A stretch of DNA of 64,000 nucleotides. Source: Actinomycetota bacterium. Lineage in GTDB: Bacteria; Actinomycetota; Acidimicrobiia; Spongiisociales; UBA11373. A program made the translations under genes and the position numbers. Shown here one piece after another: positions 2,141 through 20,345 of the stretch. The notes under the pieces are model-generated. The model searched no databases, was not told the DNA's origin, and was given only the letters and a program-made list of their open reading frames with translations. Each line of letters begins with the position of its first letter. Positions within the stretch are counted from its first letter, which is position 1. The stretch is taken from positions 1,390 to 65,389 of the forward strand of contig JBDROA010000007.1 in NCBI GenBank assembly GCA_043810615.1. The letters are read 5' to 3'.

Positions 2141-2190
2141 GGTGGCGTCAGCCTAAACGGGCCGGGCCGGCGAGTCCCCGCAGGCGAACC

Positions 2191-4097: not shown

Positions 4098-4309
4098 TTA
4101 TCGGGGCGCCGCGCCTGCCTTTAGGGCCGAACGTCCCGGGTTGGGCGGTCGGCGCCCGGGCGACCCTCATGTGGCGCCCATGGGCGAGCCACCGGAGGCA
4201 GGATGGTCGACCTCAGCGGCGTCGGCATCACCAACGTCGCCAACGTGTACCGCAACGGTGACCGCGGCCGGGCCGCGCCCCGACTGAGAGGGCGCAACCG
4301 GGATCCGGT

Positions 4310-5485
4310 TCAGTGGGTGAGCACCCGGCGCAGCCGCCAGGTGGCCACCACCAGGAAGCAGGCGGCAAAGGCGGCCAGCACCCCCAGCTGCGGGAGGATG
4401 TCGAGCAGGCTGCCGTCCCGGCGTACGAGCTCGGCGAAGGCATCGATGGCCCAGGCGTGCGGGGTGAAGCGGGCGATGGCCTGCATAGTGTCGGGGAAGA
4501 GCTCGATGGGAACCATGGCCCCCCCTACCGCTGCCAGCCCCAGCCCCAGCAACACGCCCAGGCCTCCGGCCTGCTGCTCGTTGCGGAAGAGGGCCCCGGA
4601 GAGCATCGCCGCCCCGGACCCCACCAGGGCGAACATCACCACCACCGCAATCGCCCCCAGCGGATCGCCCCAGTTGACCCCGAAGACGAGCAGGGTCCCC
4701 ACCATGATGTAGACGCCCTGCACCATGGCCACCCCGAACCGGCCGGCCACCTCCCCGCCCAGGATGACCCCGGAGGAGGTGGGGGTGGAGAGCATGCGCC
4801 GCGCCACCCCCAGGCGGCGGGTGAGGATCAGGTCGGCGGCCCCGGCCAGCGAGGTGAGGAACATGAATAGCGCCAACTGGGAGCCGGCCCCCAGGTCGAA
4901 AGCGCCCAGGTTCTCGAAGTCTTCGAATACCGAGTCCCCGGCCTGGCGGTAAGTCACGGTGATGCTCGGCTCCCGAGCCGCCAGCGCCTGGGCCACCGCC
5001 AGGGCGTCGGCGAAGGAGGCCACCCCCTTTCCCGCCGCGAAGCGGGCCGCCCGGATCGGCCGGGCCTGTGCCCCCACGACGTCGGCCACCGTCTCGCGGG
5101 CGAGCATCCCGTTTTCGTCGTCGCGGCAGGCCACGAAACCCACCTCCACCGACCCGCCACCCGTGAGGGCGGCGTCGTAGCCCTCCGGGACCAGCACCCC
5201 GGCGTTCACCTGGCCCCGTTGGACTGCCTCGGTGAGCGCCTCCGGCGAGTCGTAGCGGACCACGCTGATGTCGTCGAGGCCGTCGAGGCCGCTCACCAGG
5301 GCCGAAGCCAGCGGGCCCTCGTCACCGGCGACGTGCACTCCCACCCGGGCGTCGAAGCCGCCGCCGAACATCATCCCCAGGAGCAGGATGATGAACAACG
5401 GGAAGACGAAGACGAAGAAGATGTTGGTCCGCTGGCGCAGCATCCGCACCGTGTTCACCCACCCGATGGCGAGCACCTTCTTCAC
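4310..5485 (-). CDS. ABC-2 type transporter permease
   Basis: GTG start at 5485 (VKKVLAIGWVNTVRMLRQRTNIFFVFVFPLFIILL...) overlapping the stop of the upstream permease (GTGA). About 390 aa with six TM-rich C-terminal half, typical of ABC-2 exporter permeases. The upstream part of the ORF-track ORF (to 6598) is RG-rich junk. Confidence 0.8.
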   Translation of the reverse strand: MKKVLAIGWVNTVRMLRQRTNIFFVFVFPLFIILLLGMMFGGGFDARVGVHVAGDEGPLASALVSGLDGLDDISVVRYDSPEALTEAVQRGQVNAGVLVPEGYDAALTGGGSVEVGFVACRDDENGMLARETVADVVGAQARPIRAARFAAGKGVASFADALAVAQALAAREPSITVTYRQAGDSVFEDFENLGAFDLGAGSQLALFMFLTSLAGAADLILTRRLGVARRMLSTPTSSGVILGGEVAGRFGVAMVQGVYIMVGTLLVFGVNWGDPLGAIAVVVMFALVGSGAAMLSGALFRNEQQAGGLGVLLGLGLAAVGGAMVPIELFPDTMQAIARFTPHAWAIDAFAELVRRDGSLLDILPQLGVLAAFAACFLVVATWRLRRVLTH

Positions 5486-6663
5486 GGCGCCAGCACCTTC
5501 GCCATGCGGAGCTGGGCCAGGCCCCCGGTGACCAGACCGAAAAGCGCCACGTAGAGGGCGGCGGGGAACACCGCGCTCACGCCGCCTCCGGCGGCGAGAT
5601 CCCCCAGGCCCCGCAGGAACCAGGCGTGCGGGGTGATCAGGCTGAGCTTCCCGATGAAGCCCCCCATCTGCGAGACGGGGAAGAACGACCCGCCGAGCAT
5701 GGCGAGCACGAAGCCGATGACCACCTGAAGGTTGCCCGCCTGCTCGGCGGTGCGGGCGAAGGCGGCCACCACGAACATCACCCCCATGGCGGCGATCACC
5801 CCGGCCAGGACCATGACCGCCACCCCGAGGGAGTTGCCCCACGAGGCGCCCAGCAGCACCGTCGTGCCCACGGCGAGCACCGCCATGCTCACGACCCCCA
5901 GGACGAAGGAAGTGAGGGCCTTGCCGGCCACGATGGAGCGGCGCGAGATGGGGGCGGCGAGCAGGCGGCCCAGGGTCCCGTTCTCCCGCTCCTCGAGGAG
6001 GCCGAGGACGCCGAACTGCACGGTGAGAAAGAGGAAGAGGATGCCCATGGCCGCCGAGTAGTAGGTGCCCGAGGACAGCTCCTTCGAGTTCTTCGTGTCC
6101 TCCACCAGGCCGAGGGGGTCGGGCACCGCCCTGGCGTCGGCCACGAGAGCCTCGGCCTCGCCCGCCTCGGGCGAGCGCCCGAGCGCGGTGAAGTAGGTCC
6201 CCAGCGACACCCCCACACCGTTGATCTCGCCCACGAACTTCCCGGCCACCGACCGGGCCACCTGGCCGGCGATGGGGCTGTTCACGTTGGCCACCACCTC
6301 GATGGCCGTGGTGCCGCCTCCCTCGGCGGCGGCGCTGAAACCCGCCGGGATGACGAAGGCGGCGTCGACCTTGCCGTCGGCGGCCATCTGCCGGACGAGC
6401 TCGGCCGAGGCCACTTCCTCGACGGCGAACACCCCCCTCTCGCCGAGCGGGGCCAGCACCTGGTCGACGAAGAGGCGCGCCGTCGGCCCGCCATCGTCGT
6501 CGGCCACGCCGAAGCTCACGTTCAGGGCGTTGTCGGCGATACCGGAGAAGAGCAGGCTGAAGATGGCCGCCAGCCCCAGGGGGGCCACGATCCCCCACAG
6601 GTAGGCGCTGCGGTCGCGCAACCGCTGACGCAGATCCTTGAGGGCGATCCGCAGCGCAGCCAT
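5482..6663 (-). CDS. ABC-2 type transporter permease
   Basis: 393 aa, MAALRIALKDLRQRLRDRSAYLWGIVAPLGLAAIFSLLF...; paralog of the downstream permease. Its start overlaps the ATPase stop. Confidence 0.85.
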   Translation of the reverse strand: MAALRIALKDLRQRLRDRSAYLWGIVAPLGLAAIFSLLFSGIADNALNVSFGVADDDGGPTARLFVDQVLAPLGERGVFAVEEVASAELVRQMAADGKVDAAFVIPAGFSAAAEGGGTTAIEVVANVNSPIAGQVARSVAGKFVGEINGVGVSLGTYFTALGRSPEAGEAEALVADARAVPDPLGLVEDTKNSKELSSGTYYSAAMGILFLFLTVQFGVLGLLEERENGTLGRLLAAPISRRSIVAGKALTSFVLGVVSMAVLAVGTTVLLGASWGNSLGVAVMVLAGVIAAMGVMFVVAAFARTAEQAGNLQVVIGFVLAMLGGSFFPVSQMGGFIGKLSLITPHAWFLRGLGDLAAGGGVSAVFPAALYVALFGLVTGGLAQLRMAKVLAP

Positions 6664-6665
6664 GG

Positions 6666-7655
6666 CTACTCGCGCAGCGCCTTGCCGGTCAGGTGGAGGA
6701 ACACCGCCTCGAGATTGGGCTCGTCCACCTCGACGGAGTGGATCGACACCCCGGCCCCAGTGGCGGCGCCCAGGATGGCGGTCAGGGCCCGGTCGGCGCC
6801 GTCGACGATGAGGTCGATGCGCTCCTCGCCGGCGGTGACCCCTTCGACGCCGGGCACCGCCCGCAGTGCCTCCAGCGCGCCCAAGAGGTGCCCGGAGGCG
6901 GTGAGCCGCACCTTGTCCCGCTCCCCCACCAGGCGGACCAGTTCCGCCCGGGTGCCCTCGGCCTTGATCTCGCCCTCGTCGATGATGCCCACCCGGTCGC
7001 AGAGACGCTCCGCCTCCTCCATGTAGTGAGTGGTGTACAGCACCGCCATCCCCTCGGCACTCAACTGCTCCACACTCTCCAGAATGGCATTGCGGCTCTG
7101 CGGGTCCACCCCCACGGTGGGTTCGTCGAGCATGAGCAGGCGGGGCTTGTGGAGCAGGCCGATTCCGATGTTCAGGCGGCGCTTCATGCCCCCGGAGAAC
7201 TCACCGGAGCGGTCCTTGGCCCGCTCCTTGAGGCCGATGGTCTCGAGGACCTCATCGACCCGGGCGGAAAGCTCCCGGCCCGCCAGGCCGTACAGGTGCC
7301 CGAAGAACACCAGGTTCTCCCGGGCGCTGAGGTCGGGGTAGATGGCGATGTCCTGGGGGACGTAGCCGATGGCCGCCTTGGCGTCGGTGGAGGTGATGCG
7401 GATCTCCCGCCCGTCCACCAGCACCTCCCCGGCGTCGCTCTCCAGCAGGCCGATGGCCATGGAGATGGTGGTCGTCTTGCCGGCGCCGTTGGGGCCGAGC
7501 AGGCCGTAGGTCTCTCCTTCGGCGATGTGGAAGGAGACGTCCTTGACGGCGACCAGATCCTTGAAGGCTTTGCGCAAGCCCCGCGCCTCGAGCACCAGGC
7601 GGCGTTCCAAAGGCGGTCCTCCTGTGGTCGGGGCGAAACATAGCGGTTGGAGCAC
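6666..7655 (-). CDS. ABC transporter ATP-binding protein
   Basis: Walker A GLLGPNGAGKTT, signature FSGGMKRRL, Walker B LLMLDEPT. The C-terminal extension is typical of ABC-2 exporter ATPases. The start may lie a little downstream of 7655. Confidence 0.9.
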   Translation of the reverse strand: MLQPLCFAPTTGGPPLERRLVLEARGLRKAFKDLVAVKDVSFHIAEGETYGLLGPNGAGKTTTISMAIGLLESDAGEVLVDGREIRITSTDAKAAIGYVPQDIAIYPDLSARENLVFFGHLYGLAGRELSARVDEVLETIGLKERAKDRSGEFSGGMKRRLNIGIGLLHKPRLLMLDEPTVGVDPQSRNAILESVEQLSAEGMAVLYTTHYMEEAERLCDRVGIIDEGEIKAEGTRAELVRLVGERDKVRLTASGHLLGALEALRAVPGVEGVTAGEERIDLIVDGADRALTAILGAATGAGVSIHSVEVDEPNLEAVFLHLTGKALRE

Positions 7656-7735
7656 CGCCGGGCGGCGGTATCCGGCCGCAAGGTTCCCGACCCGCCTCTA
7701 TGCTGCCCGGGCCGATCGGGCAGGAGGCAGTCAGG

Positions 7736-8694
<959 letters not shown>

Positions 8695-8698
<4 letters not shown>

Positions 8699-9480
8699 CG
8701 GTCCTCGCCGCCCCACCGGGCACGACGCTGCGCTCCGGGCCGAGGTACTGGTGGGACTCCTACCGGATGATGCTCCGCTGGGAGATGACCTCCCTGCGAA
8801 TGGTCCTCGTGATCGCGGTCATCGTGCAGATCCTCACCGGCGCCGGCTTCGTCTTGGCCCTGGGCCTGTTCTTCGGACAGGTGCCGCCCCGGGCCGCCCT
8901 GTTCGTCTCCACCGGGGTGCTGGTGGTCACCCTGGTCACCATCGGCCTGGTGCTGGGGCCGCAACTGGTCGCCATGCAGAAGGCGGAGAAGACCTACGAC
9001 TTCCTATGGTCGCTGCCCGTGCCCCGCACCACTGCCGCCCTGGCCTGGGTCACCACCAACCTCGTCCTGGGCCTCCCCGGCATGGCCGTCGCCCTGGGAG
9101 TGGCCCTGCTCCGCTACGACCTCGACCTGCACGTCTCCTGGGCGATAGTGCCGGCGGTGCTCCTCACTCTGTTCACCGGGACCATGGTCGGCTACGCCCT
9201 GGCCCACGCCCTGGGCAACCCGATGCTGATCGCCGCCATCACCCAGATGCTGATCTTCGTGATCATCGGCTTCTCCCCCATCAACTTCCCCGCCGACCAG
9301 TTGCCCGGGTGGCTCGCCGCCGCGCACCGCTGGCTCCCCCTGGCCCCCATGGCCGACACGGTGCGGGCCGGGCTCACCCGGGGGGTAGTGGAAGACGTGG
9401 CCCGCTCCTACCTGGTGCTGGGCGCCTGGGCCGCCGCCTCGATCGGTATCAGCGCCGCCGTTCTGGGAAGAAGGGGCTGA
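8695..9480 (+). CDS. ABC-2 type transporter permease
   Basis: GTG start overlapping the ATPase stop (GTGA). 261-aa polytopic membrane protein. Confidence 0.85.
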
Positions 9481-9481
9481 G

Positions 9482-10258
9482 GTGACTGCCCATTCCCCCC
9501 CGGCCCTGCGCCACGGCGCCGTCTACTGGCTGGCGGGGTATCGAGGCATGCTCCGCTTCGACCTCGCCTCGGCGCGCGAGTGGCTCGCCCCCTTCATCCT
9601 GGTCCAGGTCCTCATGGGCGCCGGCATGGCCATCATCTACGGCTTCTATCTGGGCGACATGCCCGTCCCGGTGGCCACCTTCGTGGCCACCGGGGCCCCC
9701 ACCCTGGCGGTGATCCCCCTCGGCATGGCCCTGGCCCCCAGCCTGATCGCCGGGCGCAGGATCGAAGGGACCTACGACTTCATGTGGTCGCTGCCGGTGC
9801 CCCGCCTGACCGCCGCCCTCTCCTCGTACACCCTGTTCACCGTGCTGGCCGCCCCCGGCTTCGCCGCCGCCCTGGGCATCGCCGCCTGGCGCTACCACCT
9901 CGACCTGCACCTCACCGCCTGGGTGGTGCCGGCGGTGGTGCTGTCGTCGCTCATGGCGGCCTCGGTGGGCTTCGCCGTGGGTCACGCGGTGGCGAACCCG
10001 GCCCTCATCAACGTGGTCACCAACCTGGTCATCTTCGTGGTGCTGATGTTCTCCCCCATCGCCTTCCCCATAGAGAACTTCCCGGGGTGGCTGGCGGCGG
10101 CGCACCGGGTGCTCCCCTTCTGGCACATGGCCAACGTGATTCGGGCCTCGCTGACCCAGGGCCTGGTCACCACAGTGGGAGTCTCCTACCTGGTCCTGGG
10201 GGCGTGGACGGCCGGCGCCTGGCTGCTGGCCGCCTGGGCGGTGGGGCGGAGACGTTGA
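9482..10258 (+). CDS. ABC-2 type transporter permease (paralog of 8695..9480)
   Basis: GTG at 9482 directly after the previous stop. 258 aa and clearly homologous to the preceding permease (shared ...EGTYDFMWSLPVPR... and ...FPGWLAAAHR.LP... blocks). Confidence 0.85.
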   Translation: MTAHSPPALRHGAVYWLAGYRGMLRFDLASAREWLAPFILVQVLMGAGMAIIYGFYLGDMPVPVATFVATGAPTLAVIPLGMALAPSLIAGRRIEGTYDFMWSLPVPRLTAALSSYTLFTVLAAPGFAAALGIAAWRYHLDLHLTAWVVPAVVLSSLMAASVGFAVGHAVANPALINVVTNLVIFVVLMFSPIAFPIENFPGWLAAAHRVLPFWHMANVIRASLTQGLVTTVGVSYLVLGAWTAGAWLLAAWAVGRRR

Positions 10259-10480
10259 GGGCCCCCTCTCCCGCGGCGGCGGGCGAGGGCGTGGGGTGAG
10301 GGCTTGCGCAGTCCCCCACGGCAGCGGCAGAGTCGGCGGGAAAACACCAGAAGGGCGGTGGAGACAGGTCGCGTTTGCCCTCATCACTCGGCAGCCGCAT
10401 CCCGAGCTCGATTCCGACCGGATCACGGTTGCCGTCTCGCGTCTCTCTCCCATTCGCGGGAGAGGCAGGAAGTGGCTCCC

Positions 10481-10696
10481 CTACCCCCCACCCTCGGCCT
10501 CGCCGGCAGCCACGATGCTCAGACGCACCACAGCTCCCAACTCGGGGCCGTGCGGGGTGCCGCCGCCGTAGTCGATCTCCACGGCGAAGCCGCCGAGGGC
10601 GGCGGGGATGCCGGCGGCGCGCAAGACCGCCACCCCGCCGGTGGCCCCCTCCGCCGCCGCCCGAATCAGCTCACGGATCTCGCTGGTATCGCTCAC
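10481..10696 (-). CDS. hypothetical small Gly/Ala-rich protein
   Basis: GTG at 10696 with an AGGAAGGGAG RBS-like run 5 nt upstream. The 71-aa product is VSDTSEIRELIRAAAEGATGGVAVLRAAGIPAALGGFAVEIDYGGG... No family recognised. Confidence 0.3.
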   Translation of the reverse strand: MSDTSEIRELIRAAAEGATGGVAVLRAAGIPAALGGFAVEIDYGGGTPHGPELGAVVRLSIVAAGEAEGGG

Positions 10697-10818
10697 GGTG
10701 ACTCCCTTCCTCCTGGTCGCGGGGCGGAGCCTGGCTCGGGCCTGTCTCAGGAGTGTGCCAATCCCCCGCCCCGGCACACCCGGCCTTGCGCTCACCGGCA
10801 GGCTGCCGGGTAGCGTCC

Positions 10819-11391
10819 TCAGGCGTAGCCGGGTTCGTTGCCCGGGCGCCACTTGATCGAGCACCCCAGGCTGGGGTGCTGCTCCGAGGGCACCGCGGCC
10901 CCGGCGAGGAGGGCGTCGATGGCCTCGCGGAGATCCTCACCGGTGACCGGCACCTCGCTGCCCGGGCGGCTGGCGTCGAAGCGCCCCCGGTACACCAGGC
11001 GCCGGTCGGCGCCGAACAGGAAGAAGTCGGGAGTGCAGGCGGCGGAGTAGGCCTTGGCCGTCTCTTGGGACTCGTCGAAGAGGTAGGGGAAGCGGTAGCC
11101 CCGGAGGCGGGCTTCTTCGGCCAGGAGTTCGGGAGCGTCGCCGGGATGGCTGCCGGGGTCGTTAGCGCTGATGGCGACCATCCCCAGGTCGGCCGGCGCA
11201 TAGTCGGCCCGCAATTGCACCAGGCCGCCGCGGACGTGCTGCACGTAGGGGCAGTGGTTGCAGATGAACATCACCAGCAAGGCAGGCTGGACGAAGTCCG
11301 TCAGGGAGACCGGCCGGCCGGTGAGAGGTTCGGGCAGGGTGAAGCCGGGCGCCGGGGTGCCCAGGGTGAGCCTCGTGGAGTTGACCGCCAT
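10819..11391 (-). CDS. thioredoxin-fold redoxin (AhpC/TSA-type thiol-disulfide oxidoreductase)
   Basis: From internal ATG 11391: MAVNSTRLTLGTPAPGFTLPEPLTGRPVSLTDF...FICNHCPYVQHVRGGLVQL (CxxC) ...ISANDPGSHP... This is a classic redoxin layout. Confidence 0.85.
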   Translation of the reverse strand: MAVNSTRLTLGTPAPGFTLPEPLTGRPVSLTDFVQPALLVMFICNHCPYVQHVRGGLVQLRADYAPADLGMVAISANDPGSHPGDAPELLAEEARLRGYRFPYLFDESQETAKAYSAACTPDFFLFGADRRLVYRGRFDASRPGSEVPVTGEDLREAIDALLAGAAVPSEQHPSLGCSIKWRPGNEPGYA

Positions 11392-11477
11392 ATCGCTCCT
11401 CGGTCGAATTGATGGCGGCATCGTATGGGGATATCGACCCCTACCGCACCCGGCGACGCGCCGGGTAGTGTCCCCTC

Positions 11478-12281
11478 GTGCTCGCGCGCCGCACCGCCCT
11501 TCTCGCCGCCGCCGGCCTCGCCGTCGGCGCGGTGGCTGCCTTCCTCCTCATGCCCCGCGGCGAAGGGGCTGCCAGCACCACCTCGACGACGGTCGGCGCC
11601 GCCACCACCACGACCACCGCCCCCCCGTGGGTAAACCGGCGGGAAACCCGCCTCGGGCCCGGCGTGATCCTCGCCACCGGCCTGCAGATGGAGGGCGGCC
11701 GGGTGCTCTTCACGTACGAGGTCGAACCCATCACCCCCCTCGCCGCCGCCGGCTCCCCCGACCGGCCGATAGAGGAAGTATCACCGGCGGCACCGGCCTC
11801 GTTCACCCTCACCTACCCCGGCGGCGCAGTCGCCGCACGGATCCTGGGCCCGGGACAACGGGCGGGGCGCTTCGACGTGCCCTCCGGGATCACCCTCGAC
11901 CAGGTCCAGGCAATCAGCGTCGACTCCTACTGGGTGGCGGTCCCCGCCGGCTTCACCATCGACCTCTCCCCCTCGAGCGGCGCCTGGGTGCCCACCGCCC
12001 CCGGACTGCGGGCCCGCATCCTGAAAGTGGTGGAGCAGACGGAGAACCGCCTGGTCGTCGTAGAGATGGAAGGGGAGGCCGCCCTGGCCGGCGATCTTGC
12101 CATCGCCGGGGAAGGAAGGGAGTGGCAGTGCTCTTCCTACTCCCAGTTGGGAGGCCTGCGCTGGACCCTCGACTTCCGCGGTGAGACCCTGCCCGACCCG
12201 GTGCGCCTGGTGGTGCGCGGCGTGGCCTGGATCGAGGTCGCCGGAGGCGGACCGGTGAGCCTGGAGGGGATACCGCGATGA
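11478..12281 (+). CDS. membrane-anchored hypothetical protein with a Thr-rich linker
   Basis: GTG start. N-terminal TM helix (LLAAAGLAVGAVAAFLLM), then TTSTTVGAATTTTTAPP, then a roughly 200-aa domain. Its stop overlaps the start of the next gene (ATGA at 12278). Confidence 0.6.
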   Translation: MLARRTALLAAAGLAVGAVAAFLLMPRGEGAASTTSTTVGAATTTTTAPPWVNRRETRLGPGVILATGLQMEGGRVLFTYEVEPITPLAAAGSPDRPIEEVSPAAPASFTLTYPGGAVAARILGPGQRAGRFDVPSGITLDQVQAISVDSYWVAVPAGFTIDLSPSSGAWVPTAPGLRARILKVVEQTENRLVVVEMEGEAALAGDLAIAGEGREWQCSSYSQLGGLRWTLDFRGETLPDPVRLVVRGVAWIEVAGGGPVSLEGIPR

Positions 12282-13254
12282 CCGACAACGCCCTGCGCGA
12301 GGTGCTGTGCTCCCCCCTCGACGACCTGCGCCCTCCCGGGCGTGGGCGCTGGACCGGGGTCATCACCCTGCTGATCGCAGCGGCCTGCGGGTTCGGGGCG
12401 ATCGCCGCGATTCGTTCCCTCGGCAGCGGCGAGACCGCCCCTACCACGGCGACGACAACCCCGGTGGTCTCATCCTCCACTGCCGCCAACCCCACCCCGC
12501 TGGACGAGGTGGGATTGGAGGCGGTGGCTGCCTGGCGCCAGGGCGGCAAGCTCTACCTGGTGGTGGCCACCACGATCCTGCCGGGAACCGAGCGGGGCGA
12601 GGTCGCCGGAATGCCCGGTGCCCACTGGGTGCTCCGCGTCGGGAAGGCGACCTGCGCCCCGCGACCGCCGAGCTGTTCACTGCGCTGGCCCCCGGCCTGT
12701 TCGCCCTGGAGTTCCCCGACATCGACATCACCGGGGGCGTCGAGCTGCTCGCCTACCCGGCCTCCGAGCTGGTCGAGGGGGTGTTCCCCACCGGGCTCGC
12801 CTCGGCCCAGCTCCCCTGGGAGGGGCCCCTCGCTGCCACCCCCTACCTCCTCGGCGGGGAAGAGGTCGTCATCGACCGGCTCCGGCTGGACGACGGCGGC
12901 GGGGAGATCGTCTGGCACCTGGCCGGGGACTCGGAGGCCCGGGCGGTGGTGAGCGCCGGCGCCACCTACTCCGAGGTGGGAGGCGCGCCGCAGGCCATCG
13001 TCGCCGAGCCCGACCTGCCCCTCGCCTCGCTGGTGGCCTCCCCCACCGCCACCCCGGTCACCCGCTTCGGCGTCGTGCACCTGTTCCACCTCGACGACCC
13101 GGATCAGCCCACCTACCGCAGCCGGTTCTGGGGCGATCCGGAGCGCGTCGTGGCCGTAGAGGCGCTGGACCTGGAACTACTGGTGCGCCTGTACCGGTAC
13201 GCCGCCGAGCCAGTCGTCATCCCGGTGAGCCTCACCGTCACCCCAGAGGACTGA
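12278..13254 (+). pseudogene. frameshifted tandem paralog of 11478..12281 (or an assembly indel)
   Basis: ATG 12278 opens a frame with a TM helix plus Thr-rich linker that reads sensibly to about 12645 (...EVAGMPGAHWVLRVG) and then becomes junk. The -1 frame reads sensibly from about 12650 to the stop at 13254 (...DLRPATAELFTALAPGLFALEFPDIDITGG...TVTPED) and parallels the upstream paralog (EEVSPAAPASFTLTYPGG). Confidence 0.5.
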
Positions 13255-13332
13255 ACCCCCGGCCCGCCTCGTGAGCGGCGTCGTCGCGTAGGGGGGGCCG
13301 GGAGCCACAAGCCGAGCCCCACGTGTGGGCGA

Positions 13333-13350
13333 CCGCAGCCTGGGGTGGGG
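13333..13350 (-). repeat. copy (inverted orientation) of the short dispersed repeat CCCCACCC(T/C)GGGCTGCGG
   Basis: ccgcagcctggggtgggg read directly. About 200 bp from a direct-orientation copy at 13548-13565, so the two form an inverted pair. Confidence 0.55.
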
Positions 13351-13547
13351 TCTACAAGTGTCACCCTTGCTCGGATCGACTTCTCCCCCGCCCCAGCGGG
13401 GGAGATGCCCGAAGGGCAGAGGGGGCAGCCTCCCACCAAGGCCTCGCCACATGCTGCCCCCACCCTTGCCCTCCCCCACCGCCGTGGGGGAGGGAGCAAC
13501 ACCCTGGGGCGCTGCTCACGAAGAACACCATTCAGGGCGTGTTCTCG

Positions 13548-13565
13548 CCCCACCCTGGGGTGCGG
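13548..13565 (+). repeat. copy of the short dispersed repeat
   Basis: ccccaccctggggtgcgg followed by tgtgacattgttatc. Confidence 0.55.
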
Positions 13566-13682
13566 TGTGACATTGTTATCAGAAGACAACCGGCACAAAG
13601 GCGGCCAACCCCCAACCGCAGCCCAAGCAGGAAAAGGTCACCGGTGCCCCGGCTGAGACAGCAGCGACCCGGCACAAGGCCC

Positions 13683-14723
13683 CTACTCGTTGACCAGCAC
13701 CACCCGGTAGCGCGCCTGGTTCCGGCGCACCCGGAGCATCGCCTCGTTCACCTGCGCCATCGGCATCAGTTCGATACGGGGGCTTATGCCATGCCGCTGG
13801 GCAAAGGCCAGCATCTCGCGCATGTCGGCCCGGCTCCCCAGGAACGAGCCGGTGATCGACACCTGGTGCGCCACGAAGTTCACCATGGGGCCGACACCGG
13901 AGCCCCCGACGAGAGGCAGATCGATCGGGGCGAAGGCCGGCAGCACCAGCCGCCCGTTCTTGGTGAGGACCATCACCAGGTTCCCCCAGTCGTTCCCCGA
14001 CTGGGCGGTGCAGAGCAGCAAGTCGAAGCCGAACTCCTTCTCCTCCATGGCCCCCTGATCGGTCGTGAGGAGGAAATGGTCGGCACCTAAAGCCCGCGCT
14101 TCCTCCTCCTTCCCGGGAGAGGAAGACAGCGCCGTCACTTCGCAGCCGAAGGCCTTGGCGAACTGGAGCGCCAGATGGCCCAGGCCGCCGATCCCGACGA
14201 TGCCCACCCGGGTGGAGGCCCCCGCCGTGTACTTGCGCAGCGGCGGATACACGGCGATGCCGGCGCACATGAGCACCGCGGCCGCCTCGGGAGCCATGTC
14301 GGCCGGGAGCGGGTAGGCAAACCGGCCCTCCGCCACCACCGAAGAGGCAAAGCCCCCGTAGGGCGTCCAGGTGCCGCAGTCGGCTATCTGGAGGCAAAGG
14401 TGCTCGTCGCCCGCCCGGCACCACTCGCACTTGCCGCAGCAGCGTCCCTGCCAGCCGACGCCCACCAGGTCTCCCACCTTCAGCCCTGAGACCGCCGGCC
14501 CCAGTTCGGTCACCTGCCCCACGATCTCGTGGCCCGGCATCATGGGGAAGTCGAAGACGCCGAAGTCGCCGTCCACGGCGTGGATATCCGTATGGCAGAC
14601 CCCGCAGTGGGTGATCGCGACCCGGACCTCATCGTCCTTCAGTTCGGGTGCCTCGTAGGACGCCGGCTTCAGACCTTCTCCGGGCCCTTGCGCCGAGTAG
14701 CCCACAAAGGTCGAACGCGACAT
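13683..14723 (-). CDS. zinc-type NADP-dependent alcohol dehydrogenase (cinnamyl-alcohol-DH-like subfamily)
   Basis: ATG 14723 with AGGAGGAGG immediately upstream. MSRSTFVGYSAQ...CGVCHTDIH...GHEIVGQVTELG...GIGGLGHLALQFAKAFG. 346 aa. The ORF-track upstream extension is junk. Confidence 0.9.
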   Translation of the reverse strand: MSRSTFVGYSAQGPGEGLKPASYEAPELKDDEVRVAITHCGVCHTDIHAVDGDFGVFDFPMMPGHEIVGQVTELGPAVSGLKVGDLVGVGWQGRCCGKCEWCRAGDEHLCLQIADCGTWTPYGGFASSVVAEGRFAYPLPADMAPEAAAVLMCAGIAVYPPLRKYTAGASTRVGIVGIGGLGHLALQFAKAFGCEVTALSSSPGKEEEARALGADHFLLTTDQGAMEEKEFGFDLLLCTAQSGNDWGNLVMVLTKNGRLVLPAFAPIDLPLVGGSGVGPMVNFVAHQVSITGSFLGSRADMREMLAFAQRHGISPRIELMPMAQVNEAMLRVRRNQARYRVVLVNE

Positions 14724-14820
14724 GACAACCCCTCCTCCTGCCACGGCTGCCGAAGCCAGCATATGAACCAGATGCGCCGCCCGCCATGAGCGGGACGGAC
14801 CACCGGCCAGGTGGCACGGC

Positions 14821-14838
14821 CCCCACCCTGGGCTGCGG
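14821..14838 (+). repeat. copy of the short dispersed repeat
   Basis: ccccaccctgggctgcgg, lying between the ADH start and the next gene. Confidence 0.55.
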
Positions 14839-14876
14839 CGCGAATCTGTTACCTGAGATCGGCTCGAGCGGACTCG

Positions 14877-14911
14877 GGTAACCCCCGGCCACACCCTGGG
14901 CTGCGGTGTGG
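14877..14911 (+). repeat. extended repeat copy GGTAACCCCCGGCC-ACACCCTGGGCTGCGGTGTGG with an internal 7-bp stem (CCACACC/GGTGTGG)
   Basis: Read directly. The ccacacc...ggtgtgg arms are exact reverse complements flanking a ctgggctgc loop. Confidence 0.55.
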
Positions 14912-15037
14912 AGATGTTAGATACTGGCAGCTTGAGACCACTGCGACCGGACTTCTTCGCAGATGTGGGAGTCGATGCTCGGGCCGCCGGCCTCTAGGCT
15001 TTCGCGGGCCGGCTCATTCGACACGGAGGCATCCGGA

Positions 15038-15838
15038 ATGGAATCTGGTTCCCGAGTGCCTTTGATGGACGCGAATCGTGCGGCGCTCGCCACGGTGGGG
15101 TCACGTTTCGCTCACATGCTCAGGATGGTCCCCGACCCCACCAGGCCTTCGGTCGGGTTCTGGAGTGTCGGGGAGACTGCGGCGCATGTGGCCTCGAGTG
15201 CGTCGTTCTTCCTGGCTGTGGCACGGGGAGAGAAGGAGCCGGAGCGCCTCGATGAAGTCGCAGCCGACAACGCGGCGTTCCTGGCGTCGGACCCGGAGCG
15301 GGATCTTCGCACCCTCGCCGAACGCTTTGAGGCCGGTGAGCGGGCGCTACTGGCCCACGTCGATCGCATCGACGGTGATCCGCCTCTGGAGCTATTCGAG
15401 GGTGTAGAAGTACCCCTGTCCACGCTTCTGGCGGTCGAACTCGCCGAGGTGATCGTCCACGGTTTCGACATCGCCCGGGCGTCGGGTCTCACTTGGCGGA
15501 TCACCCGCGCCGAGGCCGCTCCCGCGGCGAGTGGCATGCTCCCCTTGCTCCCCCATGCCGTAGACCGGGAGGCGGCAGCCGGGCGACGGGCCCGGTTCGA
15601 GCTGCGGATCCGAGGCGGATCCTCCGCCACCCTGGAGTTCGCAGGCGGGACGCTGCGCCTCTCCCCGCCAATCCCACAGGCAGTCGACTGTCGTATCTCG
15701 GCCGACCCGATGGTCTATCTGCTGCTCAGCTTCGGCCGGATCGGGCCGCTGCGACCCATGGTGCAAGGCAAGCTCACCGCCTGGGGGCGCCGCCCCTGGC
15801 TGGCGGCATCCTTCCCCTCGCTGTTCCAAAGCGTCTGA
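15038..15838 (+). CDS. mycothiol-type maleylpyruvate-isomerase N-terminal (DinB-like) domain protein with an SCP2-like C-terminus
   Basis: ATG 15038 with GGAGG 8 nt upstream. ...WSVGETAAHVAS... is typical of the MDMPI_N/TIGR03083 family. The C-terminal ...KLTAWGRRPWLAASFPSLF resembles SCP2-type ends. The ORF-track start at 14963 is probably too early. Confidence 0.65.
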   Translation: MESGSRVPLMDANRAALATVGSRFAHMLRMVPDPTRPSVGFWSVGETAAHVASSASFFLAVARGEKEPERLDEVAADNAAFLASDPERDLRTLAERFEAGERALLAHVDRIDGDPPLELFEGVEVPLSTLLAVELAEVIVHGFDIARASGLTWRITRAEAAPAASGMLPLLPHAVDREAAAGRRARFELRIRGGSSATLEFAGGTLRLSPPIPQAVDCRISADPMVYLLLSFGRIGPLRPMVQGKLTAWGRRPWLAASFPSLFQSV

Positions 15839-15904
15839 GCTGCTGAGCAGGCCGCCCAACGACGCCCGTTCCCAGGCGCGCTCACGAACCGCAGGTTGGC
15901 TAGG

Positions 15905-15986
15905 CGCCGAGATTCGAACCGCGCCTGGTACGGCCAGGGACGCTCGCCCGAGGCCAGGTAACCCCCGACCCCACCCTGGGCTGCGG
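15905..15986 (-). other. tRNA 3'-half-like remnant (GGTTCGAATC T-loop-like) fused to an extended copy of the dispersed repeat
   Basis: The minus-sense reads ...caggcgcGGTTCGAATCtcggcgcc..., but the flanking T-stem pairs only 3 of 5 and no acceptor stem is found. 15958-15986 (ggtaacccccgaccccaccctgggctgcgg) matches the 14877-14906 unit. Confidence 0.3.
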
Positions 15987-15991
15987 CTACC

Positions 15992-16252
15992 TCACCCGAT
16001 CAGGGCTTCCACTCCGGCCGGCCAGGGCTCCCGCGAGCCGAGGCGCTCTCCACAGGGCACGTCGAGCGCACCGGCGAGCAGGCGTCCCACCAGGACCGAG
16101 AGGGCCAACCCCTCGGAGCGGGCCCGCCGGCGCAGGGCCTCGGCCACCTCGGCCGGAACCAGCGCCACCAGGCGCTCCCGGGGCTCGCACCAGCCGACGG
16201 GCCGGGGGGCACCCCAGTCGAGAATCGCTGCGGTGTTGTGGGCGGCTGCCAT
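15992..16252 (-). CDS. small ribbon-helix-helix (CopG/Arc/MetJ-type) DNA-binding protein
   Basis: 86 aa. ...RLVALVPAEVAEALRRRARSEGLALSVLVGRLLAG... matches the RHH beta-strand plus two-helix pattern. Divergent from the small gene at 16394. Confidence 0.55.
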   Translation of the reverse strand: MAAAHNTAAILDWGAPRPVGWCEPRERLVALVPAEVAEALRRRARSEGLALSVLVGRLLAGALDVPCGERLGSREPWPAGVEALIG

Positions 16253-16273
16253 TGGGTACTAGCCAAGCAGATT

Positions 16274-16314
16274 GCGCGCGGATAGTGAAGGATTTCGCGC
16301 TCTCAGCGCGCGGA
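16274..16314. promoter_or_regulatory. two direct copies of the GC palindrome-containing GCGCGCGGA, 32 bp apart, in a divergent promoter region
   Basis: Read at 16274-16282 and 16306-16314, between the RHH gene (minus) and the 16394 gene (plus). Confidence 0.3.
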
Positions 16315-16393
16315 GCGTGACGAACCCCGCCCCCCTGGCACCGCCGGCGCCGAACCGGTACCCTCATACGAGAACGCTCTGTAGGAGGAGGAC

Positions 16394-16567
16394 ATGGAGC
16401 TCCGCAAAGGCATGCGGGTCAAGGAGCTCACCAAGAAGGTGGGCCAGGTGGCTCGCACCGGAACCATCCTCGCCGTCCGCGGCTCGACCGTGGATGTGCG
16501 GTGGGACGACGGCCACACCAGCTCGCTGAGTCACGGGTTCCTGTTCCCCATCGCCGGAGACGGGTAA
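16394..16567 (+). CDS. 57-aa conserved micro-protein (DUF1918-like, tentative)
   Basis: ATG 16394 preceded by GTAGGAGGAGGAC (strong RBS). MELRKGMRVKELTKKVGQVARTGTILAVRGSTVDVRWDDGHTSSLSHGFLFPIAGDG, stop TAA. It is below the ORF-track length cutoff. Confidence 0.6.
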   Translation: MELRKGMRVKELTKKVGQVARTGTILAVRGSTVDVRWDDGHTSSLSHGFLFPIAGDG

Positions 16568-16575
16568 CCGCAGGC

Positions 16576-16860
16576 TCACGGCGCGGAGGCTTCCGCCCCC
16601 GGGATCCCCGCCTCGTCGGAATGGGCGCGGCGGTGGCGGCGTACCAGCATCTCCCGCTGCTGGTCGACGTCTCCCTTGATCCGCTCCAGTCGGGCGGGGC
16701 CCTCGAGACGGAGGCGGAACCGGCCCTGCATGCGGAAGTGGCCCTCCGGGGGCACCGCGCCTCCGGGCTGGTAGTCGGGTTCCTCGCGCTTCACCGGGCA
16801 GTGGACCCGGTGACCTTGGCTTGGGGAAGGTAGGTCGGCGCGTCGGCGGAGTCTCGACAT
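16576..16860 (-). CDS. hypothetical protein
   Basis: 94-aa ORF with mixed, non-junk composition (...HCPVKREEPDYQPGGAVPPEGHFRMQGRFRLRLEGPARLERIKGDVDQQREMLVRR...). Convergent with the 16394 gene. No family recognised. Confidence 0.3.
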   Translation of the reverse strand: MSRLRRRADLPSPSQGHRVHCPVKREEPDYQPGGAVPPEGHFRMQGRFRLRLEGPARLERIKGDVDQQREMLVRRHRRAHSDEAGIPGAEASAP

Positions 16861-17237
16861 GAAGCCGGTGCCTCTGACCTGTTTGATGACCCGGTTGCGG
16901 CCCTCTCAGCCTGCTCCCCGGCTTGCGAACCGGCCGGGAGAGCGGTTCGGCAGTTCGGGTCACCACCTTGGAGGCACTTCTGGTCGGTGGTGTTGTTCTG
17001 GTGGGCCGATCCGAGCCTTCGGCCATCTGACGGCGTTCGGTGACGGCTCAATCGTCCCGCCGGCCGTCGGGACGGCTCCCACGGGATCGACGACACCCGC
17101 CACCGCCTGACGTCCCCCTCGGGTCGGGCGATCCTTGGCGTGGGTGACGCGTCTCCCTCGCCCGTCCGCCCCGTCCGACGATCCCACCATCAGATGGGTT
17201 CACCCCGCCGCCCTCTTGGGCTCCCCGCACCACAACA

Positions 17238-18668
17238 CTAGGGCGTCCGCTGCGCCGCAATCGCGTCGATCCCTCGCGCAAGGGCAGCCTCGTTCAGCGC
17301 GATCAGATCGCCCTTCGACCGCAGCGCTCCCCTGATAGCGGTCAGAAACGAAGCCGGAGGGAACAGGCTTGTGGCTGCTTGAAGAGCACCGAGGGCGACG
17401 ATGTTCTTGACCATCTTGCTGCCGATCTCTCCAGAGACCGCGGTCATAGGGACCCCGTAGGCGCGCACTCCCTCAGCGAGATCGGGAACCTCGCCGATGA
17501 CCGTGCTGTCGTACACGATCGTGCCGCCGGCCTGCACCGCGGGTCCGAATTTGCGGAGGCTCGGCCCGTTGAAGGCCACCAGTATGTGGGGTGCGGGAGC
17601 TGCAGGAGAGAGCACCTCGTGCTCGGCGATGTGGACGTCGGCGTACGAGGTTCCCCCACGCGATTCCGGCCCATAGCTGGGAATGTGGGTCGAGTCGAAC
17701 CCCTCGTTGATGGCGGCCCGGGCCAGGAGAAGGGCAGCGGTTTGGGCCCCATCGCCGCCAGCCCCGGCCAGTTTCAGGGCGATGTCATCATGGGCAATGT
17801 GGGCCGGGAACCCGCTTGCGAAGCGGGGCGGCGCCTCGGCATGGCTTTCGATCTGGTCGAGCAGTGCCGCCGCCTCGAAGTTGGGTGGATTCACATCGGG
17901 CCAGGGCTCCCTGTCGCCGAGGTCCTTCTTCACTCCGAGCGGGAAGACGGGCAGCATCCGCTCGCGGACCCAAGCCTCGGCCTCCGTCGGATCGACGTGC
18001 CACTGCACCGGACACTCCGAAAGCACTTCGACCAGTGCGAAGCCTCGCTTCTCCACCTGCATCTGAAGGGCCTTGCGGATGGCGTGCCTGGCGCGGTTGC
18101 GGCGTTGGTTGTCGAACAGCGCCACACGCTCCACGTACACCGGCCCATCCAGAGCGGCGAACAACTCGGCCACCTTCATCGGTTCCCCCATGAAGCGAGG
18201 GCGCCCCTCAGGGGTGGTGGACGTCTCCTGACCCAGCAGAGTCGTCGGTGCCAACTGGCCACCGGTCATGGCGTAGATGCCGTTGTTGACGAAGATCACC
18301 GAGATGGGGATGCCCATCTGCGCGGCATAGATGATCTCGGCCAGTCCGATCGACGCCAGATCGCCGTCTCCCTGATACGACACCACGACTGCATCGGGGT
18401 TGGCCACCTTGTGACCCAGCGCCACGGCGGGCGCCCTGCCGTGAGCCGCCTGGGTGTTCCCCACATCCAGGTAGTAGTAAAGGAACACACTGCACCCCAC
18501 CGGGGAAATGGCAACGGTGCGGTCCTGCACCCCCAGTTCCTCGATGGCCTCGGCCAGGTACTTGTGCACCAGGCCGTGGCCGCATCCGGGGCAGTAGTGA
18601 GTGCTGTGGGCCTTGAGGCCCTCGGCGTGGGCATGCCGCTCGAAGGTCTCGTAGAGGACGCCGCTCAC
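17238..18668 (-). CDS. 2-oxoacid:ferredoxin oxidoreductase, fused beta (TPP-binding) and gamma subunit
   Basis: 476 aa. The N-terminal half reads ...HYCPGCGHG...GDGDLASIG...NNGIYAMTGGQ (TPP/Fe-S beta subunit). The C-terminal half has the gamma-subunit fold (...LLARAAINEGFDSTHIPSYGPESRGG...). Confidence 0.9.
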   Translation of the reverse strand: MSGVLYETFERHAHAEGLKAHSTHYCPGCGHGLVHKYLAEAIEELGVQDRTVAISPVGCSVFLYYYLDVGNTQAAHGRAPAVALGHKVANPDAVVVSYQGDGDLASIGLAEIIYAAQMGIPISVIFVNNGIYAMTGGQLAPTTLLGQETSTTPEGRPRFMGEPMKVAELFAALDGPVYVERVALFDNQRRNRARHAIRKALQMQVEKRGFALVEVLSECPVQWHVDPTEAEAWVRERMLPVFPLGVKKDLGDREPWPDVNPPNFEAAALLDQIESHAEAPPRFASGFPAHIAHDDIALKLAGAGGDGAQTAALLLARAAINEGFDSTHIPSYGPESRGGTSYADVHIAEHEVLSPAAPAPHILVAFNGPSLRKFGPAVQAGGTIVYDSTVIGEVPDLAEGVRAYGVPMTAVSGEIGSKMVKNIVALGALQAATSLFPPASFLTAIRGALRSKGDLIALNEAALARGIDAIAAQRTP

Positions 18669-20074
18669 ACCACCACCTCCCCTCGAGCGTCTGCCGCCTG
18701 GATGATCTCGGCGGTCTCCGGCAGATTGCCCCCGTAGCGGCGCACGTTGCCGATCGGCGGATGGTCATCGATCCCGGCGTAGCTGAGAGCCAACCGAAGC
18801 TCGTCCTCCAATTGCCCGTCGCTGGCTTCCACGACCACGAGGCGTTGGACGCCTGGCAGGATTCCCCGCAGAGCTTCGATCGGGAACGGCCACAGCGTGA
18901 TTGGGCGGAAGAGCCCGGCCCGAACCCCCCGCTCCCGCAGGACCTGAACGACCCCCTTCACCGTCCGAGAGGGGGTATTCGAGGCGACGTACACCACCTC
19001 GGCGTCGCTGCAGCGAAAGAGGTCCGCCCGCTGCTCGTTTGCGGTCATCCGCCGGTACTTCTCGATCAGCCTCACGTTGAAGGCCTCCTGATCGTCCTCT
19101 TCCAGGCGGATCGAGCTATGCAGGTTCCGTCGATGCATGGCGTCCCCGTACACCGCCCAGGCCGGCAAACCGGGCCTCACCATGTACTCCGGCAGTCGCA
19201 CCTTTCCGCTCACCTGGCCCAGGTAGCCGTCGCCCAGGATGACCACAGGATTCCGGTAGGTGAAGCTCAACTCGAATGCCAGCATCGTCAAGTCCAGCAT
19301 CTCCTGGGGATCTGCCGGCGCCAGCACGATCGCATGCGTATTCCCATGGCCCAGGCCCCGGCACGCCAGCTTGATGTCGTCTTGTGACGGCGCGATGTTC
19401 CCCAATCCCGGACCGGCCCGCATGATGTCGACGAACACCCCCGGCAGCTCGGAGCCGATCATGTACGAGATCCCCTCCACCATCAGGCTGAAGCCGGGTG
19501 ACGAGGTGAACGTCATGCACGCCAAACCCGCACCACCGCATCCATACATGTGGTTGACCGCCGCCACCTCGCTCACCGCCTGCACGAACACCCCATCGAG
19601 GTGCGGCAGGATCTTCGCCATCAACTCGGCGCCCTCGGTCGACGGTGTGATCGGATACCCGAAGAAGTGCCGGCACCCCGCCAACAAGGCCCCGACCGCC
19701 GCCCCGTAAGCCCCCTTGAGCAGCAGCGGTTCCCGTGGGGGCAGTTGGATGCGCTCTCCTGGAATGTCCTTCGGGACCGGGGCCGGAAGTGGCTGCTCGC
19801 CGGGCTCGACTGCGTCTGCGGTCTCCCACCAGAAGTGACGATCGTCACCGTGGAGGGCATAGGGCTCCGGACAGGCCGAAAAACACAATCCGCAGGCGTT
19901 GCAGTCCTGCAGGTCGATGACCACGGGAAGCAATCCGCTCTCGGCGTTCACCGCCGGCGCGAGTGTGATGCAGCCACGGGCGCAGGCCGGCATGCAGCGG
20001 CCGCAGCCCTTGCAGTACTCCGCCGTGAGATGCGGCATCGGCCGCTGCCGGCGGCTCCTACCCTCGCCGCTCAT
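18665..20074 (-). CDS. 2-oxoacid:ferredoxin oxidoreductase, fused delta (2x[4Fe-4S] ferredoxin) and alpha subunit
   Basis: The N-terminus has two Cys clusters (CKGCGRCMPACARGC; CNACGLCFSACPEP). It is followed by an alpha-subunit domain (...AYGAAVGALLAGCRHFFGYPITPSTE...). The stop overlaps the start of the beta-gamma gene. An alternative start lies at ATG 20038. Confidence 0.9.
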   Translation of the reverse strand: MSGEGRSRRQRPMPHLTAEYCKGCGRCMPACARGCITLAPAVNAESGLLPVVIDLQDCNACGLCFSACPEPYALHGDDRHFWWETADAVEPGEQPLPAPVPKDIPGERIQLPPREPLLLKGAYGAAVGALLAGCRHFFGYPITPSTEGAELMAKILPHLDGVFVQAVSEVAAVNHMYGCGGAGLACMTFTSSPGFSLMVEGISYMIGSELPGVFVDIMRAGPGLGNIAPSQDDIKLACRGLGHGNTHAIVLAPADPQEMLDLTMLAFELSFTYRNPVVILGDGYLGQVSGKVRLPEYMVRPGLPAWAVYGDAMHRRNLHSSIRLEEDDQEAFNVRLIEKYRRMTANEQRADLFRCSDAEVVYVASNTPSRTVKGVVQVLRERGVRAGLFRPITLWPFPIEALRGILPGVQRLVVVEASDGQLEDELRLALSYAGIDDHPPIGNVRRYGGNLPETAEIIQAADARGEVVV

Positions 20075-20345
20075 GTCGTGTACCCGAACCCGGGCCCTGG
20101 TCCCCGCACCATGCCAACCCGCCTCCTAGACCGGACTCCCCCATGGGGCCCATGTCCGCCACCAGTCTGCTTGAACCGAGCCAAGCCCCCGGGAAGGATA
20201 GCCCCCGGCCTCCTCGAACTGCCCCTGATGGATCCGGGTTGGGCCACCACGGCGCCCTCGCCGCCCGCCCGCGGATACGGAGTTCGATCATCTGGTCCGA
20301 AACCATGGAAGCCGAGGGGCCGCTCCCGGGCAGGGCCGAAGGTCC

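Follow-up and report, generated by a model that had tools for sequence, protein, structure and literature searches.

What are the short repeats that accompany an alcohol dehydrogenase gene (ADH) and a gene of the mycothiol-dependent maleylpyruvate isomerase family (MDMPI) in a genome of an uncultured Actinomycetota lineage, and why are they found only there? The repeats are located in a 64,000-nt stretch of the contig JBDROA010000007.1 (Actinomycetota bacterium, assembly GCA_043810615.1, positions 1,390 to 65,389 of the forward strand), hereafter referred to as the window, between two convergent genes, a conserved hypothetical gene (up2) and a gene for a ribbon-helix-helix-like protein (RHH). 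The anatomy of the repeats and the comparison with related metagenome contigs, designated with L and a number, indicate that the repeats are, on balance, probably the junction sites of an array of small mobile gene cassettes, which occupies a hypervariable slot between up2 and the RHH gene in this lineage.

Anatomy of the repeated element

A search with the 18-mer CCCCACCCTGGGCTGCGG found the five copies that had been listed in an earlier note on this DNA, with 0–2 mismatches in each (Table 1; the copy at 13333-13350 was matched on the minus strand); about one copy is expected by chance, and none of 100 shuffled sequences reached five. The core is an 18-bp imperfect palindrome with the dyad consensus CCNCANCC-TG-GGNTGNGG, to which all five copies conform without mismatches, the differences between them being restricted to positions 3, 6, 13 and 16; no further sites with one mismatch or fewer to this consensus are present in the rest of the window. 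Since the core itself is palindromic, the orientation of the copy at 13333, which had been taken for an inverted one, is ambiguous from the core alone. A 55-nt profile hidden Markov model of the element gave exactly five matches in the window, all on the plus strand and near the full length of the model; this copy, designated A, scored 31.4 bits on the plus strand versus 6.9 bits on the minus strand, so it is not inverted.

The alignment of the window copies with the copies of the relatives indicates that the whole element is about 53 bp long and asymmetric, with 5–6 nt separating its left arm (CYCRGGTAAC) from the core and 9 nt separating the core from its right arm (GTYACCTGAG), the inverse of the left one. 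The motif TGTTA, common to three copies, is a part of the right arm, and the 30-nt unit GGTAACCCCC, previously noticed as shared by two copies, is indeed present at 14877 and 15957, comprises parts of the arms and extends to a 45-nt unit with 80% identity (14862-14906 and 15942-15986). A sixth, half-decayed copy, F, was found at 13600-13646, with its core position exactly 68 nt past that of B, a spacing that mirrors the 68 nt between C and D; the conserved TTGGGCTGCG(G) of element F also follows the ADH gene in both L114 and L115. The five copies are intergenic, as had been stated, with the exception that the decayed right flank of E reaches the final codons of the RHH-like open reading frame (ORF).

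The modules of the array have one general plan: core, 9 nt, right arm, payload, left arm, 5–6 nt, core, with all cores co-oriented. The window can be read as backbone, A, right arm, 160-nt non-coding payload, B, right arm, 15 nt, left arm, F, right arm, ADH, left arm, C, right arm, 15 nt, left arm, D, right arm, MDMPI, left arm, E and backbone. The complete elements are located between payloads only; the boundaries of the array, both in the window and in L117, are formed by half elements, of which the left one has no left arm and the right one has no right arm. In the window, the left flank of A is backbone without a recognisable left arm, and the right flank of E is the 3′ end of the RHH gene; the left boundary element of L115 also has no left arm, and this contig ends before the right boundary. 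The payloads are single genes or gene pairs (ADH and MDMPI in the window; toxin-antitoxin pairs, a glycosyltransferase gene and others in the relatives), and the ADH payload carries its own conserved upstream region (14724-14805). Some payloads are just a 15-nt linker; such doublets, with 49–50 nt between cores and a 15-nt centre of unrelated sequence, were found five times (B-F and C-D in the window, copies 1-2 of L091, likewise elements 1-2 of L117, and the pair in L115 that corresponds to A and F).

Differences in modules between related contigs

The relatives are metagenome contigs, and L115, L117 and L118 share the flanking genes with the window (up2 on the left and, where it is reached, the RHH gene on the right). 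Between the shared flanks, these contigs hold completely different genes, except for the ADH module in L115; the presence-absence comparison proposed in the earlier note shows that L117 and L118 have neither ADH nor MDMPI, and L115 has ADH but other genes where the window has MDMPI. The relatives differ by whole modules, with the joints at the elements, and the suggestion that the repeats may be att-like scars of small cassette insertions gains support from the other genes in the slot, from the breakpoints in or beside the cores and from the boundary half elements.

The contig L117 matches the window at 4257-13347 and 15963-16756 with 86–88% identity; the homology ends inside core A and restarts 6 nt before core E, and the 2.6-kb interior with ADH and MDMPI is replaced by 5.2 kb encoding two small membrane proteins, a glycosyltransferase, a Phd-RelE-type toxin-antitoxin pair, a SnoaL-like protein and a GntR-type regulator. 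L117 possesses five elements, all on the plus strand and all within the up2-RHH interval of the 21-kb locus. The more distant L118 contains a third gene set (DUF2079, an unknown gene and Fic); the homology restarts inside core E, at 15974, and one arm-less core-like site is left. Element A and its counterparts in L117 and L115 have a common backbone left flank and different right spacers and arms, while E and its L117 counterpart have a common right flank (RHH 3′ end) and different left sides.

L115 is about 80% identical to the window at the 3′ end of up2 (13060-13342) and has a single element in place of the window's A, 215 nt and B. The window region 13602-14857, including the ADH gene, is matched with 94.9% identity (94% amino-acid identity for the ADH of L115/L116), and the match ends exactly at 14857, the outer end of the right arm of C; the ortholog of element C in L115 is likewise situated 98 nt upstream of the ADH start. 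Beyond C, L115 encodes a 91-aa ORF and a GNAT acetyltransferase followed by another complete element, and the window has D and MDMPI; the three elements of L115 are co-oriented. Close ADH homologs were found in differing contexts (L113, L114 and L115/L116), the ADH module being about 91% identical in L113 and L114, which represent two other backbones and have decayed elements. The identity of the same up2 segment is 80% between the window and L115, 81–83% between the window and L117 and 87% between L115 and L117; the ADH module, however, is 95% identical in the window and L115 and absent from L117, which means that the module does not follow the backbone.

The number of copies was assessed in the 64-kb window, the 21-kb L117 locus, representative genomes and metagenome contigs. 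No element copies are present outside the up2-RHH slot in the window or in the L117 locus, and none of 185,579 representative genomes, a set without the source genome, contains the exact 18-mer in multiple copies; 47 loci in those genomes, belonging to unrelated taxa, have one match each and no arms, which looks like chance. Among 54 exact 18-mer matches in JGI metagenomes, the only true relative is the 1082-bp contig L091, also the only one with at least two exact 18-mers, where three co-oriented copies (two complete and one cut by the contig end) are placed around one 244-aa gene; its doublet has 49 nt between cores, an identical left arm CTCGGGTAACCCC and an unrelated linker. The earlier classification of the repeats as a dispersed family, similar to repetitive extragenic palindromic (REP) sequences or miniature inverted-repeat transposable elements (MITEs), is not in line with this distribution. 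Searches of viral contigs gave no matches for the left arm with the core and none for the core with the right arm, and MDMPI homologs with 64–77% identity reside in unrelated contexts with no elements nearby.

Two side observations concern the genes of the relatives. The L117 stretch 13287-14033, called as one 248-aa 'PhdYeFM' product, is composed of a Phd-type antitoxin (to about 13555) and a RelE/ParE-like toxin (to 13833), and the gene call runs through a complete element at 13855-13908. The 398-kb contig L113 encodes a large serine recombinase (15026-16429; Resolvase, Recombinase and Zn_ribbon_recom domains) 4 kb from the ADH module, with no link to the elements established.

Probable cassette exchange, its alternatives and known systems

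Folding of the elements, proposed earlier as a check for a conserved hairpin, gave no such signal. The z-scores of single-stranded DNA folds range from −3.4 to +1.0 and are mostly near 0 (−0.08 for the core alone), and the 7-bp stem CCACACC/GGTGTGG, noticed in one copy, does exist and is private to copy D. Pairing over the full palindrome in nine copies amounts to 67% of cells versus a shuffled mean of 71%; positions 3/16 are unpaired in eight of the nine copies and positions 6/13 in six, and neither covariation nor compensatory pairing supports an element hairpin in this set. Symmetric conserved positions, broken by free non-complementary ones, fit a site that a dimeric protein recognises as duplex DNA.

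The mechanism that we infer goes beyond the anatomy and the comparative breakpoints. A dimeric protein would recognise the dyad core as double-stranded DNA, and a recombinase, presumably encoded elsewhere in the genome, would carry out strand exchange at the central TG, which is not palindromic, or next to it; each module would be excised as a circle with one complete element (left arm, core and right arm), the circles could re-enter at any core, and repeated conservative insertion into a chromosomal core would build the array. Target-specific insertion duplicating the core yields an identical anatomy and is indistinguishable from this scheme here. Perhaps the locus represents an undescribed integron-like cassette system in Actinomycetota, with site-specific exchange between lineages at a co-oriented 18-bp duplex dyad with asymmetric arms, a distant recombinase and 68-bp 'empty modules' as a regular by-product; this broader suggestion is tentative, and we regard it as possible rather than probable.

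Several observations weigh against cassette exchange. The window and L115 are identical through the right spacer and arm of C, and the break lies at the arm edge, not in the core, which a simple mid-core crossover does not predict. The scheme does not explain why five modules are 'empty', each with exactly 15 nt of unrelated sequence, and a 68-bp unit could not circularise alone. Orthologous elements change at about the rate of the DNA around them, with decayed copies in L113, L114 and L118, so any activity would be lineage-restricted or past. Neither an excised circle nor an empty site was observed, and the family is known from about five independent contigs. Pfam searches revealed no recombinase, integrase or transposase in about 38 ORFs of the window, and there are none among the called genes of L117 and L118.

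A different explanation, which we consider rather unlikely, is that the repeats are selfish or structural palindromes similar to REP sequences, their hairpin-forming doublets (REPINs) or bacterial interspersed mosaic elements (BIMEs), maybe moved by a RAYT-type enzyme encoded elsewhere and piled up in a recombination hot spot; in that case, ordinary homologous recombination, either among the repeats or in the core genes at the flanks, would produce the module differences seen between relatives. The shuffling of small accessory genes at chromosomal hot spots of Actinobacteria is mostly attributed to homologous recombination in flanking genes. The repeats do resemble REP-like sequences: they are extragenic, imperfectly palindromic and often placed where two genes converge, with some doublets fixed at 49–50 nt between cores. 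The arms of a doublet can pair to give a long hairpin, the fold of the C-D region having an energy of −70 kcal/mol (z = −1.9); the orthologous copies evolve at a roughly neutral rate and decay in some lineages, and no recombinase is adjacent. REP-like sequences, however, form tens to hundreds of dispersed copies, depend on a stem-loop and typically alternate in orientation, particularly in their clusters (BIMEs), whereas the elements here are confined to one 2.7-kb slot of the window and to the same slot in L117, are all co-oriented, have no multi-copy core in the representative genomes and lack a hairpin signal; a Y1 (HUH, RAYT) transposase domain was not found in the window ORFs searched with Pfam, and passive accumulation does not predict the boundary half elements. 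As for MITEs, the 49–50-nt 'empty' units have inverted arms between direct 18-bp cores; their centres are unrelated in sequence, the units show no dispersal, and a duplication as long as 18 bp would be out of the ordinary.

It is improbable that the cores serve as operators through which a dimeric transcription factor (for instance, a stress regulator or the RHH protein encoded next to the array) controls ADH and MDMPI together with other genes of the detoxification type. Operators would be compatible with the perfect dyad symmetry, with the variation only at four non-contact-like positions, with the location of C 98 nt before the start codon of ADH and of D 132 nt before that of MDMPI, two divergent genes, and with the conserved RHH gene abutting the array in three genomes. 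However, convergent gene ends enclose three of the five copies, the elements of L091, L115 and L117 track module boundaries and not gene starts, and the element decays in L113 and L114 although the ADH promoter region is retained. An autoregulator would bind between the RHH and DUF1918 genes, and this intergenic region contains no copy; nor would operators account for the arms, the constant spacer lengths or the coincidence of homology breakpoints with the elements. Scars of a tRNA-targeting integrative element, with partial-tRNA att repeats as in tycheposon-type islands, are hardly credible as an explanation. The locus behaves like an island, and the 10-mer GGTTCGAATC on the minus strand at 15911-15920 (GATTCGAACC, the T-loop consensus) had led to the stretch being read as the 3′ half of a tRNA, but ARAGORN predicted no tRNA genes in the 64 kb, Rfam gave no matches at the gathering score there, and no Rfam tRNA model matched the stretch even at E ≤ 10, the sole match at this level being the tRNA-like family mascRNA (16.2 bits, E = 9.8, far under the threshold). 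The single occurrence of the 10-mer lies within the MDMPI module, not in the repeat. In L112, which encodes an MDMPI protein with 85% identity, neither the 10-mer nor the loop is conserved, and the stem is retained via G-U-compatible changes; the core has no tRNA similarity, and the window contains no tRNA gene beside the slot. The stretch 15903-15955 more probably forms a stem-loop past the 3′ end of the MDMPI gene.

Other candidates were considered and rejected. The conserved TGTTA that begins 8 nt past the core might be read as a −10 element, as a promoter of extracytoplasmic function (ECF) type or as a sigma-54 promoter, but, on inspection, the spacing and hexamers are not consistent between the copies; a CRP/Rex-like TGTGA-N6-TCACA motif adjoins copy B only; the arms lack the kind of palindromy that a dif/Xer-like site requires; the spacing is too irregular for CRISPR; parS and DnaA boxes show no resemblance; and the att sites of phage large serine integrases gave no real match.

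Among the known systems, integron arrays and clusters of attC sites lacking an adjacent integrase (CALINs) show the closest grammar: co-oriented short repeats, near-identical within a lineage, split single-gene accessory modules including toxin-antitoxin pairs, and the content is fully different between close relatives at one fixed chromosomal site. As in CALINs, no integrase is adjacent; a complete integron, with IntI and attI next to the array, was not found, the scanned window ORFs and the called genes of L117 and L118 encoding no tyrosine recombinase. The arms of several copies read GGTAAC...GTTACC and contain AAC...GTT inverted repeats; two positions deviate from the attC motifs RYYYAAC/GTTRRRY, and GTC or AAG takes the place of these triplets in some copies. 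The attC site acts as a folded single strand with R and L boxes, an unpaired central spacer, extrahelical bases and a variable loop of 20–100 nt (PMC4889954), whereas the element described here is 53 bp long with no variable loop and unsupported pairing, and its conserved part is an 18-bp double-stranded dyad. Unlike in integrons, payload genes occur on either strand, and the ADH module, at least, retains a conserved upstream region of its own. A genome survey found no complete integrons in Actinobacteria genomes (PMC4889954), and no published description of such an integron-like repeat system in Actinobacteria was found in open-access text, which is not searchable by sequence.

The pdif modules of Acinetobacter are accessory modules, often with toxin-antitoxin or resistance genes, that are bounded by short dyad sites and replaced one for one from one related replicon to another, with XerC/XerD encoded elsewhere (PMC13141974). 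The modules described here are likewise discrete, lie between short dyad sites and are replaced between relatives, with a recombinase elsewhere only proposed. The pdif sites, however, consist of 11 + 6 + 11 bp with distinct XerC/XerD arms and an obligatory alternating orientation, giving C and D modules (PMC13141974), and the elements here have an 8 + 2 + 8 bp core with arms, are co-oriented and chromosomal, and do not resemble dif in sequence; a comparison with Xer sites (TTATGTTAA-like and those listed in PMC13141974) revealed no resemblance beyond a short TATGTTA in the right spacer and arm. Tycheposon islands arise from successive integrations at one site, with cargo modules between att repeats; the repeats are partial tRNAs, and the islands carry their own tyrosine recombinase (bioRxiv 10.1101/2020.12.28.424599). 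In the present case, neither a tRNA in the window nor a recombinase among its scanned ORFs was found, and the modules are 0.07–1.3 kb. The elements have the defining features of neither integrons, pdif modules nor tycheposons.

If cassette exchange takes place in this slot, it would represent a second, independent solution to cassette capture, with an integron-like grammar and a different kind of site; the defined site sequence could be used for seeking the matching recombinase, a possible genome-engineering tool for high-GC Gram-positive bacteria. The elements are also a concrete marker for flexible loci in metagenome-assembled genomes.

Genes and features of the slot and its edges

Table 1. 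Coordinates of the elements, payloads and flanking genes in the window (dots between numbers denote ranges; arms, spacers and cores are listed from left to right).
Feature	Position	Strand	Details
up2, conserved hypothetical, left backbone gene	12278..13254	+	homologs found; adjacent to the slot in L115, L117 and L118
Element A, left boundary	13315..13370	+	core 13333-13350; 9-nt spacer; right arm GTCACCCTTG 13360-13369
Non-coding payload 'p215' between A and B	13371..13530		decayed core-like site 13497-13514; missing from L115
Element B	13531..13586	+	core 13548-13565; 9-nt spacer; right arm GTTATCAGAA 13575-13584; 38.5 bits
Linker of B-F doublet, 15 nt, 'empty module'	13585..13599		same length and unrelated letters in four other doublets
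Element F, decayed	13600..13646	+	left arm GGCGGCCAAC 13600-13609; spacer CCCCAA; half core CCGCAGCC 13616-13623; right-arm-like stretch GTCACCGGTG 13637-13646
Zinc-dependent alcohol dehydrogenase / aldehyde reductase (ADH, Ahr/YahK-like)	13683..14723	-	Pfam ADH_N and ADH_zinc_N
Element C	14805..14859	+	left arm CCAGGTGGC 14807-14815; core 14821-14838; spacer CGCGAATCT; right arm GTTACCTGAG 14848-14857; 46.6 bits
Linker of C-D doublet, 15 nt, 'empty module'	14858..14872		equivalent doublet in L091 with 49 nt core to core and unrelated linker
Element D	14873..14925	+	left arm CTCGGGTAAC 14873-14882; spacer CCCCGG; core 14889-14906; spacer TGTGGAGAT; right arm GTTAGATACT 14916-14925; 40.8 bits
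MDMPI/DinB-type protein (mycothiol-dependent maleylpyruvate isomerase family)	15038..15838	+	Pfam MDMPI_N; TIGR03083
Stretch once read as tRNA T-arm	15903..15955		stem AGGCGC/GCGCCT
Element E, right boundary	15953..15986	+	left arm CCAGGTAAC 15954-15962; spacer CCCCGA; core 15969-15986
RHH-like protein (ribbon-helix-helix), 86 aa, right backbone gene	15992..16252	-	weak Pfam RHH_5 match, E = 0.0033

The variable slot starts downstream of the up2 stop codon. The pattern of GC content at third codon positions (GC3) in up2 changes frame near 12550-12650, with the apparent start in one frame and the end in another, which could be due to a frameshift, a sequencing error or a pseudogene; the NCBI annotation contains a 315-aa ORF from 12307, and the homologs are about 326 aa long. 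The payload p215 is rich in strong GC hairpins, e.g., CTCCCCCGC/GCGGGGGAG and CCCTCCCCCAC/GTGGGGGAGGG, and the 428-nt spacer around it folds with z = −2.7. No homologs of p215 were found in any relative locus retrieved and no matches in Rfam; it could be a small RNA or decayed elements.

The identities of the ADH and MDMPI genes given in the earlier note agree with the Pfam and NCBIfam matches, the score of ADH with the NCBIfam model Ahr (343 bits) being under the cutoff of that model. The GC3 of the MDMPI gene is 0.77 versus 0.83–0.89 in the computed neighbours (0.81–0.84 for the oxidoreductase genes at 17238-20074), a sequence feature that would fit a more recent or foreign origin.

The stop codon of the RHH gene is 5 nt from core E, and the 86-aa ORF, conserved at the DNA level, edges the slot in L117 and L118 too. 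It is followed by a 57-aa ORF, which we take to be DUF1918-like, with no database match, and the divergent 86-aa/57-aa pair is kept at the right edge of the slot (window 16253-16567, L117 16313-16888, L118 14893-15466). A second replaced segment is located to the right of the slot, at 16757-20241 of the window (compare L117 from 17087 onward and L118 15662-19809); the match to L117 and L118 ends at 16756-16761 and restarts with L118 at 20242. Two 2-oxoacid:ferredoxin oxidoreductase genes (17238-20074) stand where the relatives have a differently organised cluster, and the window stretch 16576-16860 on the minus strand appears to be a leftover 3′ fragment of the gene encoding the thiamine pyrophosphate (TPP)-binding subunit in the relatives. 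At the left end of the window, a gene for a DtxR/IdeR-type iron-dependent repressor (3603-4088) adjoins FeoB (2-3831), an ordinary chromosomal context that is kept in L118.

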